Source: Promethearchaeia archaeon (lineage in GTDB: Archaea; Asgardarchaeota; Lokiarchaeia; Sigyniarchaeales; SOKP01). From it: DNA of 32,000 nucleotides. Positions within the stretch are counted from its first letter, which is position 1; the number at the start of each line of letters is the position of its first letter. The notes beneath the pieces were generated by a model. The model worked only from the letters and a program-made list of their open reading frames with translations, ran no database searches and had not been told where the DNA came from. The stretch is from the NCBI GenBank assembly GCA_046497275.1, contig JAWOFX010000176.1:1-32000 (forward strand), written 5' to 3'. A program made the position numbers and the translations under genes. Positions 9,616-10,320 of the stretch are shown here, piece after piece.

Positions 9616-10320
9616 TTATTTTTGAGCAATAAATAATCCTCTTTCTTTCATAAAACCATCATCTAAGAATACAGTACTAAGTCCAGCGTCTTCAAAAATT
9701 TGAAGTGTTTTGTCTATTTCAAAAAGTCCTAAGATATGTTTTTCCTTAAAATATTCAACTTCCTCACCAAATTTAGCTATTAAATAATGCATATTCATTA
9801 TAGATAAATTATCTTCTACCTTGGAATCATTTAAACGTGCGATCTTGATTTTATCATCCTCATAGGTGGTCATACCAGGACTCCCTTCTCTAAATACAGA
9901 TCTTGTGAACCATGGTTCAATTAAAATTATTCCACCCTTTTTTAAATGATCATTAAATAGCTGAATGGCTTTTTTCAAATTTTTGTAAGTTCGTAAATAT
10001 CCTATTGAACTAAATAAACAAATAATTATATCGAAAGTTTTATTTAGATTCAGATCAAGCATATTAGATCGGATAAATGTGACGTCTGGTAATTTCTCTT
10101 TAGCAATGGTTAACATATTTTCATTTATATCCACTCCAACGCAATTATAATCCTTCTTAAGATATTTCAAATGTTCTGCTGTACCACAAGCTATGTCTAA
10201 AAGATCATTTCCCTCTGATTTTTTATTATCTTTTATTATTTTCTTTAATTTTGCGACTTCCGACTTATAATCTTTAAATTGGTATATTAAATCGTAAATT
10301 TCTGCAAATTTTTCGTACAT
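9616..10320 (-). CDS. Class I SAM-dependent methyltransferase, TylM1/DesVI-like N-methyltransferase family
   Basis: AEIYDLIY..KDY, LLDIACGT (motif I), GVDINENML, FDIIICLFSSIGYL, LIEPWF and a C-terminal GLFIAQK; 10-nt gap after the kce stop. Confidence 0.85.
   Translation of the reverse strand: MYEKFAEIYDLIYQFKDYKSEVAKLKKIIKDNKKSEGNDLLDIACGTAEHLKYLKKDYNCVGVDINENMLTIAKEKLPDVTFIRSNMLDLNLNKTFDIIICLFSSIGYLRTYKNLKKAIQLFNDHLKKGGIILIEPWFTRSVFREGSPGMTTYEDDKIKIARLNDSKVEDNLSIMNMHYLIAKFGEEVEYFKEKHILGLFEIDKTLQIFEDAGLSTVFLDDGFMKERGLFIAQK

Follow-up and report, generated by a model that had tools for sequence, protein, structure and literature searches.

A facultative N-methyltransferase of the TylM1/DesVI family in the lysine fermentation operon of Lokiarchaeia-type Asgard archaea

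Analysis of a 32,000 nucleotide stretch of DNA from a Lokiarchaeia-type Asgard archaeon (hereinafter, the window) and of genomes from the same phylum identified a methyltransferase gene (hereinafter, MT) as a facultative accessory member of the lysine fermentation (kam) operon in a single family of these archaea (f1). The Loki-type Asgard archaea are thought to live off amino acid fermentation; the lysine operon is well conserved among them and is covered by RNA-library contigs from salt lakes. The near-identical proteins in the databases bear names that assign the organism to Promethearchaeota. The interpretation that we prefer, and to which we assign about even weight, is that MT encodes a functional accessory N-methyltransferase that is coupled to the kam operon and acts on a substrate that we leave open.

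The open reading frame at positions 9616-10320 of the window is real: it is located on the minus strand, starts with ATG, ends with TAA and encodes a 234 amino acid protein (P0001) whose annotation as a TylM1/DesVI-family class I SAM-dependent N-methyltransferase draws on family and fold matches, synteny and dN/dS. The whole kam operon occupies the minus strand as well and is transcribed in the order p532, kal, kce, MT, kdd, kamA, kamB, kamD, kamE. The first gene, p532 (11716-13314), encodes a conserved coiled-coil protein that belongs to no Pfam or NCBIfam family. It is followed by kal, the 3-aminobutyryl-CoA ammonia lyase gene (11177-11557; NF052388, 198 bits with a cut-off of 160), and kce (10331-11164; NF052387, 431 bits with a cut-off of 382; Pfam BKACE, E 8e-102). 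Beyond MT come kdd, encoding L-erythro-3,5-diaminohexanoate dehydrogenase (8525-9562; NF052381, 271 bits with a cut-off of 200), kamA, encoding the radical SAM enzyme lysine 2,3-aminomutase (7109-8353; TIGR03820, 623 bits with a cut-off of 525), and the genes for the reactivase, alpha and B12-binding beta subunits of lysine 5,6-aminomutase, namely, kamB (6047-7081; NF052386, 382 bits with a cut-off of 210), kamD (4416-6002; NF052384, 906 bits) and kamE (3613-4419; NF052385, 384 bits). All seven kal, kce, kdd and kam genes exceed the respective NCBIfam equivalog cut-offs, so that the KamA, KamD/E, Kdd, Kce and Kal set is complete on one strand within the window.

The kce gene ends with TAG at 10331-10333, and MT starts 10 nt further on. 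The mRNA across this junction reads TAGGTAAAAAAATATG, that is, a Shine-Dalgarno-like AGGT motif overlaps the kce stop codon and precedes, within the 10 nt spacer (10321-10330, minus strand, read directly from the sequence), the start of MT. The spacer between MT and kdd (9563-9615, minus strand) consists of 53 AT-rich nucleotides and, read as mRNA, contains no stretch of at least five consecutive T. The earlier note on this DNA had described these two gaps, the AGGT overlap and the lack of an oligo-T tract, all of which can be read in the sequence; it had also placed MT on the same strand as kce and kdd, which holds with the correction that this is the minus strand. As 10 nt is too short a distance for MT to have a promoter of its own outside kce, we infer that MT is co-transcribed with kce. 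Two RNA-library contigs, X1 (10125-10502) and X2 (10128-10474), from two runs of one study, cross the kce/MT junction, and additional contigs fall inside MT; none of the RNA contigs listed crosses the MT/kdd spacer at 9563-9615. These contigs come from metatranscriptome assemblies and thus report presence and contiguity, not strand, transcript ends or expression level. Nine 'salt lake metagenome' metatranscriptome runs from three studies contain between 6% and 55% of the sampled words of window positions 8400-11600, suggesting a saline-lake habitat for the organism.

The Pfam matches of the MT protein are limited to generic class I SAM-methyltransferase families (Methyltransf_25, E 1.8e-16; Methyltransf_11, E 1e-13), and no NCBIfam model reaches its cut-off in a scan with this protein; a weak match to GlySarMtaseBact (E 8.5e-10) scores 39 bits, where the cut-off is 350. 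Among solved structures, the protein has full-length matches to DesVI (3bxo, E 1.1e-43; residues 4-232 align with DesVI 7-236 in the phmmer comparison) and TylM1 (3pfg, E 1.9e-35), followed by the more distant KedS8 (E 4e-30) and CalS10 (E 2e-25). The AlphaFold2 model built with 47 homologues (pLDDT 93.8) superimposes on TylM1 (4oqd) over 233 columns with a Foldseek TM score of 0.93 and an rmsd of 1.4 A, and on DesVI with a TM score of 0.91; the superposition with TylM1 includes the C-terminal four-stranded beta cap, which in TylM1 and DesVI holds the substrate. As judged from the full-length agreement in sequence and modelled fold, membership in the TylM1/DesVI family is established. The earlier note had made this connection from four motifs, all of which are present (AEIYDLIY at residues 6-13, KDY at 16-18, CLFSSIGYL at 101-109 and EPWF at 135-138), and the structural comparison with TylM1 that it proposed bears the connection out.

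At the level of individual residues, the glycine-rich SAM loop, DxACGT, is invariant among the MT homologues. The TylM1 active-site residues considered here (Tyr14, Ser120 and His123) are those named in PDB entry titles: the conserved S105 of MT aligns with Ser120; Y108 occupies the position of His123, where DesVI likewise has Tyr; and Y2, although conserved in the family, is displaced by one residue from Tyr14 in the alignment. Six residues, F103, W137, R162, S166, H178 and R227, are shared with both TylM1 and DesVI and vary little or not at all across the archaeal family, which in addition has the invariant basic residues K33, K159 and K234. A prediction of a complex between Kce and MT from paired alignments, run without controls, gave a score of 0.00, which weighs neither for nor against such a complex.

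To survey the neighbourhood of the gene, 400 genomes of the phylum were searched with both MT and Kce, and proteins with at least 47% identity to MT were considered orthologues (a search for related loci in genome contigs gave one distant match only, and the genome search was used instead). Orthologues of MT are present in 51 of the 400 genomes, in 52 copies, and all of these genomes belong to f1, where they represent six genera. The arrangement of kce and MT is far beyond chance given that, for 47 of the 52 copies, MT follows kce on the same strand at a distance of 12-40 nt. Among the exceptions, the copies in G205 and G266 lie at contig ends inside kam clusters, those in G262 and G280 are separated from kce by one to a few genes, and only the copy in G224 is truly unlinked, being located away from the kam genes. 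Among the 74 f1 genomes with kce, 49 also encode an MT orthologue; conversely, only two f1 genomes have MT without a match to kce, and one of these is a contig-end artefact. The 60 fetched loci show two gene orders, p532-(kal or kat)-kce-MT-kdd-kamA-kamB-kamD-kamE or the identical one without MT; in about 10 loci, the part of the operon from kdd onward has been relocated, and MT remains with kce. The survey suggested in the earlier note thus rejects a one-off insertion: the slot is kept in six genera, with 51 of the 52 copies within or beside a kam cluster. The tie to the operon is supported by this retention of the position across genus-level divergence, despite the rearrangement of the flanks and of the distal half.

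All 52 copies of MT have an intact reading frame and invariant catalytic and SAM-binding motifs. The median pairwise dN/dS for the same genome pairs is 0.15 for MT, compared to 0.10 for kce and 0.09 for kdd; these figures are approximate, with dS near saturation. Judging from these comparisons, MT evolves under purifying selection. Together with the high-confidence fold, the intact frames, the invariant motifs and this dN/dS value refute the view that MT is a non-functional remnant or a chance open reading frame, to which we give hardly any credence.

Selection notwithstanding, the gene is optional. An orthologue of MT is missing from 25 kce-bearing f1 genomes and from all 9 kce-bearing genomes of the sister family f2; overall, about two thirds of the related f1 operons contain MT, and about a third do not. 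In most of the MT-less f1 loci examined, 8-100 nt separate kce from kdd, and a tblastn search of 20 MT-less loci (17 from f1 and 3 from f2) found no remnant of MT. In the kce tree, presence and absence of MT are intermixed: the branches with good support require at least 5 changes, with a parsimony count of 15, and the closest kce neighbour of the window, from the same genus (G004), lacks MT. The pattern looks like a cassette-type presence/absence polymorphism that could stem from clean loss or from recombination between operon alleles.

Beyond f1, proteins with 45-55% identity to MT are common in Nano-/Woesearchaeota, Heimdall-type Asgard archaea, Bathyarchaeota, Methanofastidiosia and CPR bacteria; in an exhaustive search, the sequences with E values of 1e-30 or lower made up 433 clusters at 50% identity. 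These stand-alone homologues lie in genomic contexts that differ from one another and have no relation to lysine. When the Pfam families of 92 genes around 16 of the stand-alone Asgard copies were counted, no partner recurred, and sugar-nucleotide genes were not enriched. In the Asgard family f18, a homologue is present in 8 of 12 genomes, and neither kce nor KamA is found in any of the 12. Thus, the MT family as a whole is not part of lysine metabolism. The operon copies fall into two or three groups of the MT tree, next to the stand-alone sequences on a short, unresolved backbone. A column by column comparison of 44 operon and 20 stand-alone copies detected no position that is conserved but different between the two sets, and the identity between operon and stand-alone sequences (54%) equals, in effect, that within the stand-alone set (53%); hence, the sequences carry no trace of a change in specificity upon entry into the operon. 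Beta-lysine as the general substrate of the family was considered and rejected, because KamA and the homologue do not occur together outside f1.

The 401 amino acid protein P0137 is an MT homologue with a C-terminally fused GNAT acetyltransferase, and GNAT genes are located near three stand-alone homologues (L051:7883-8380, L141:7512-8018 and L114:570-1052). These links may hint that the family substrate is an amine open to acetylation or methylation, the count being too small for an enrichment. A protein from the representative library, P0123 (517 amino acids), is a tandem fusion of two MT domains; TylM1 and DesVI are homodimers (PMC5356443). Longer fused forms were lacking at an E value of 1e-25, and both P0137 and P0123, which we take as leads, emerged from the exhaustive representative search.

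The stand-alone homologues bear on an alternative that we regard as a real possibility, if short of an even chance: MT would stem from a single insertion between kce and kdd in an ancestor of f1 and would keep the general, lysine-unrelated function of the archaeal family, for example N-methylation of NDP-amino sugars for surface glycans, having stayed in place because the operon supplies transcription. Such a history is favoured by the absence of divergence from homologues in organisms without the pathway, by the many clean losses of MT and by the copy of G224, which is apart from any kam gene; it is harder to reconcile with the confinement of 51 of the 52 f1 copies to the kam cluster, with the near absence of MT from cluster-less f1 genomes and with a dN/dS of 0.15, the mark of a gene that is maintained rather than drifting. 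As to the sugar, conservation of the cap-domain residues common to dTDP-sugar enzymes speaks for it, since F103, W137, R162, S166, H178 and R227 would, we presume, fit an NDP-sugar substrate too. Furthermore, the genome that contains the window (G000, 98.9% complete) encodes two DegT-type sugar aminotransferases outside the operon, one of them near a GFO/IDH/MocA oxidoreductase, and this combination is reminiscent of the WbpB/WbpE pathway for a 3-amino sugar. However, a search of the same genome for the dTDP-3-amino-sugar route found no FdtA match and no RmlB above the cut-off (best TIGR01181 match, 167 bits versus 365), and the 92 neighbours of stand-alone copies likewise do not point to sugar nucleotides. 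Among the open reading frames of the window, no typical nucleotide-sugar gene was found, as the earlier note had observed.

The earlier note had instead proposed that MT N-methylates a 3-amino intermediate of the pathway (beta-lysine, 3,5-diaminohexanoate or 3-aminobutyryl-CoA), so that the pathway would branch towards a methylated beta-amino acid or a betaine-type osmolyte or signal. We consider this proposal unlikely. The location of MT would suit it, being right behind kce, the gene for the enzyme that makes 3-aminobutyryl-CoA, and kept through operon rearrangement, as would the chemistry of TylM1 and DesVI which, according to the molecule names and PDB titles, methylate a nucleotide-linked 3-amino group. 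The osmolyte version can further draw on the salt-lake origin of the metatranscriptomes that contain the sequence and on the MscS channel gene that adjoins kamE in the window and likewise in L044, a near-identical locus, although this neighbour is not kept in other genera. A new specificity would be required, however, and no group-specific residues were found; homologues exist without KamA or kce; and the methyl donor is costly. The substrate claim accordingly gained no support, in view of the approximately 54% identical homologues in genomes without kce or KamA, the lack of any distinguishing column and the third of the operons that cleanly lack MT, whereas retention of MT in kam clusters, purifying selection and the RNA bridge to kce speak for the part of that interpretation that ties MT to the operon. 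In the boldest form of the idea, which we find just as doubtful, MT would methylate the Kce product L-3-aminobutyryl-CoA or another lysine-derived beta-amine, yielding a branch with osmolyte, signal or leaving-group chemistry that lineages toggle by means of a single cassette gene.

Under the preferred reading, that of an operon-coupled accessory enzyme, MT would be transcribed with kce, probably on a p532-kal/kat-kce-MT transcript, and so would be made while lysine is fermented. The protein most likely mono- or dimethylates the primary amine of an anionic small molecule that possibly bears a nucleotide or a phosphate. Pathway-linked candidates include L-3-aminobutyryl-CoA, which as the product of Kce would present both a nucleotide and a 3-amino group, as well as beta-lysine, 3,5-diaminohexanoate and lysine itself. 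Given that little ATP is gained from fermenting lysine and that several ATP equivalents are spent on every methyl group transferred from SAM, methylation of the main flux is not credible and a side branch is the most that can be envisaged; the methylation would accordingly be a low-flux side reaction tied to the lysine-fermenting state, outside the main carbon flow.

MT is not the only variable element of these operons: other accessory genes, for a flavodoxin and a family III CoA-transferase, occur in the same operon of relatives. The region around kce is a variable slot (L099:9376-9906, L090:11488-12033, L052:5910-7463 and L062:7789-9003) that can harbour a flavodoxin, either between kce and kdd or after MT, a family III CoA-transferase between kat and kce and, in several loci of genus g2, a CrtI/phytoene-desaturase-family flavoprotein directly after MT. 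It is plausible that the flavodoxin serves as the reductant for the radical SAM enzyme KamA. Accessory genes that plausibly assist the pathway in this way, like the failure to find the canonical dTDP-3-amino-sugar route in G000, favour a functional tie between MT and the operon. The flavoprotein had been taken for an amine oxidase that could form a methylation/demethylation pair with MT, an idea that was dropped because the protein is of the CrtI type and not a recognisable amine oxidase. At one and the same position upstream of kce (L054-L110), kal and the HemL-like kat alternate among close relatives, and either can accompany MT; both the classical and the variant lysine pathway are therefore represented within one archaeal family.

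The p532 gene lies upstream of kal/kat-kce in nearly all f1 loci, with or without MT, and the deepest RNA-library contigs of the window fall on it. The 532 amino acid product contains a long central coiled coil and is conserved (mean column identity 75%); its AlphaFold2 model has a pLDDT of 68.5, too low for a search by fold, and searches of the PDB and the Atlas returned only coiled-coil noise and unnamed archaeal clusters. Two SDR genes (13582-14397 and 14528-15346, plus strand) are divergent from the operon, and their pairing with p532 recurs in most related loci, suggesting that they may form one metabolic unit with it, for example, for handling 3-hydroxyacyl-CoA or acetoacetyl-CoA. On the other side, kamE is followed on the same strand by genes for an MscS-type mechanosensitive channel (2508-3365, minus strand) and a DUF6125 protein (1774-2430, minus strand), an arrangement found also in the near-identical loci L044 and L045 and not in other genera. 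Elsewhere, the window encodes a C25 (gingipain-type) peptidase (27387-29576, plus strand), a GH3 glycosidase (23396-25426, plus strand), a LuxE-like acyl-protein synthetase (19663-20856, minus strand) and an 879 amino acid protein without a family (16895-19534).

A selected yet optional N-methyltransferase in a lysine operon falls outside every described lysine pathway. If MT acts on an amine of the pathway, this would be new chemistry, and a previously undescribed compatible solute or signal might result; if MT is unrelated to lysine, an enzyme has long been held in a foreign catabolic operon, which calls for caution in guilt-by-association annotation.

Among the characterized enzymes, the closest to MT are TylM1 of Streptomyces fradiae and DesVI of S. 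venezuelae, the dTDP-3-amino-3,6-dideoxyhexose N,N-dimethyltransferases, which resemble it over the whole length, including the Rossmann core and the beta cap (Foldseek identity 32-34%, TM 0.91-0.93), and have the FSSIGY, EPW and RGLF motifs in common with it. In contrast to these enzymes of bacterial deoxysugar clusters, MT resides in an archaeal catabolic amino acid operon; its K159 aligns with Thr in TylM1, the counterparts of K33 and K234 being ambiguous or beyond the aligned region, and of the genes that supply TylM1 and DesVI with the sugar (RmlB, 3,4-ketoisomerase, DegT), the searches of its genome brought up those for DegT only, located elsewhere. The NDP-4-amino-sugar N-methyltransferases KedS8 and CalS10 share the fold and the cap (TM 0.85-0.91), are further from MT than TylM1 and DesVI, and originate from natural-product clusters. 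Two known routes to osmolytes offer partial parallels. The AblA/AblB route modifies the product of a lysine 2,3-aminomutase to form N-epsilon-acetyl-beta-lysine, and glycine/sarcosine N-methyltransferases make betaine by SAM-dependent N-methylation of a small amine. The operon described here differs from the former in having the full catabolic pathway instead of an AblB-like acetyltransferase, and MT differs from the latter in that its GlySarMtaseBact match is far under the cut-off. With respect to lysine fermentation itself, the canonical pathway was reportedly laid out by Kreimeyer in 2007, and its variant relies on Kat, where kat encodes a HemL-like 3-aminobutyryl-CoA aminotransferase (Perret 2011, PMC3149608). 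The enzymes of both pathways are all present in these archaea (kamA, kamD/E, kdd, kce and kal or kat). As the earlier note maintained, the canonical pathway needs no methyltransferase: neither the Kal nor the Kat variant as described includes one, and the very word is absent from the lysine fermentation paper (PMC3149608), whereas about two thirds of the f1 operons have MT between kce and kdd. Our literature search found no report of a methyltransferase in a kam cluster or of such a gene in Asgard archaea; what is new here is the combination, an archaeal member of a known enzyme family within a variant of a known pathway cluster.
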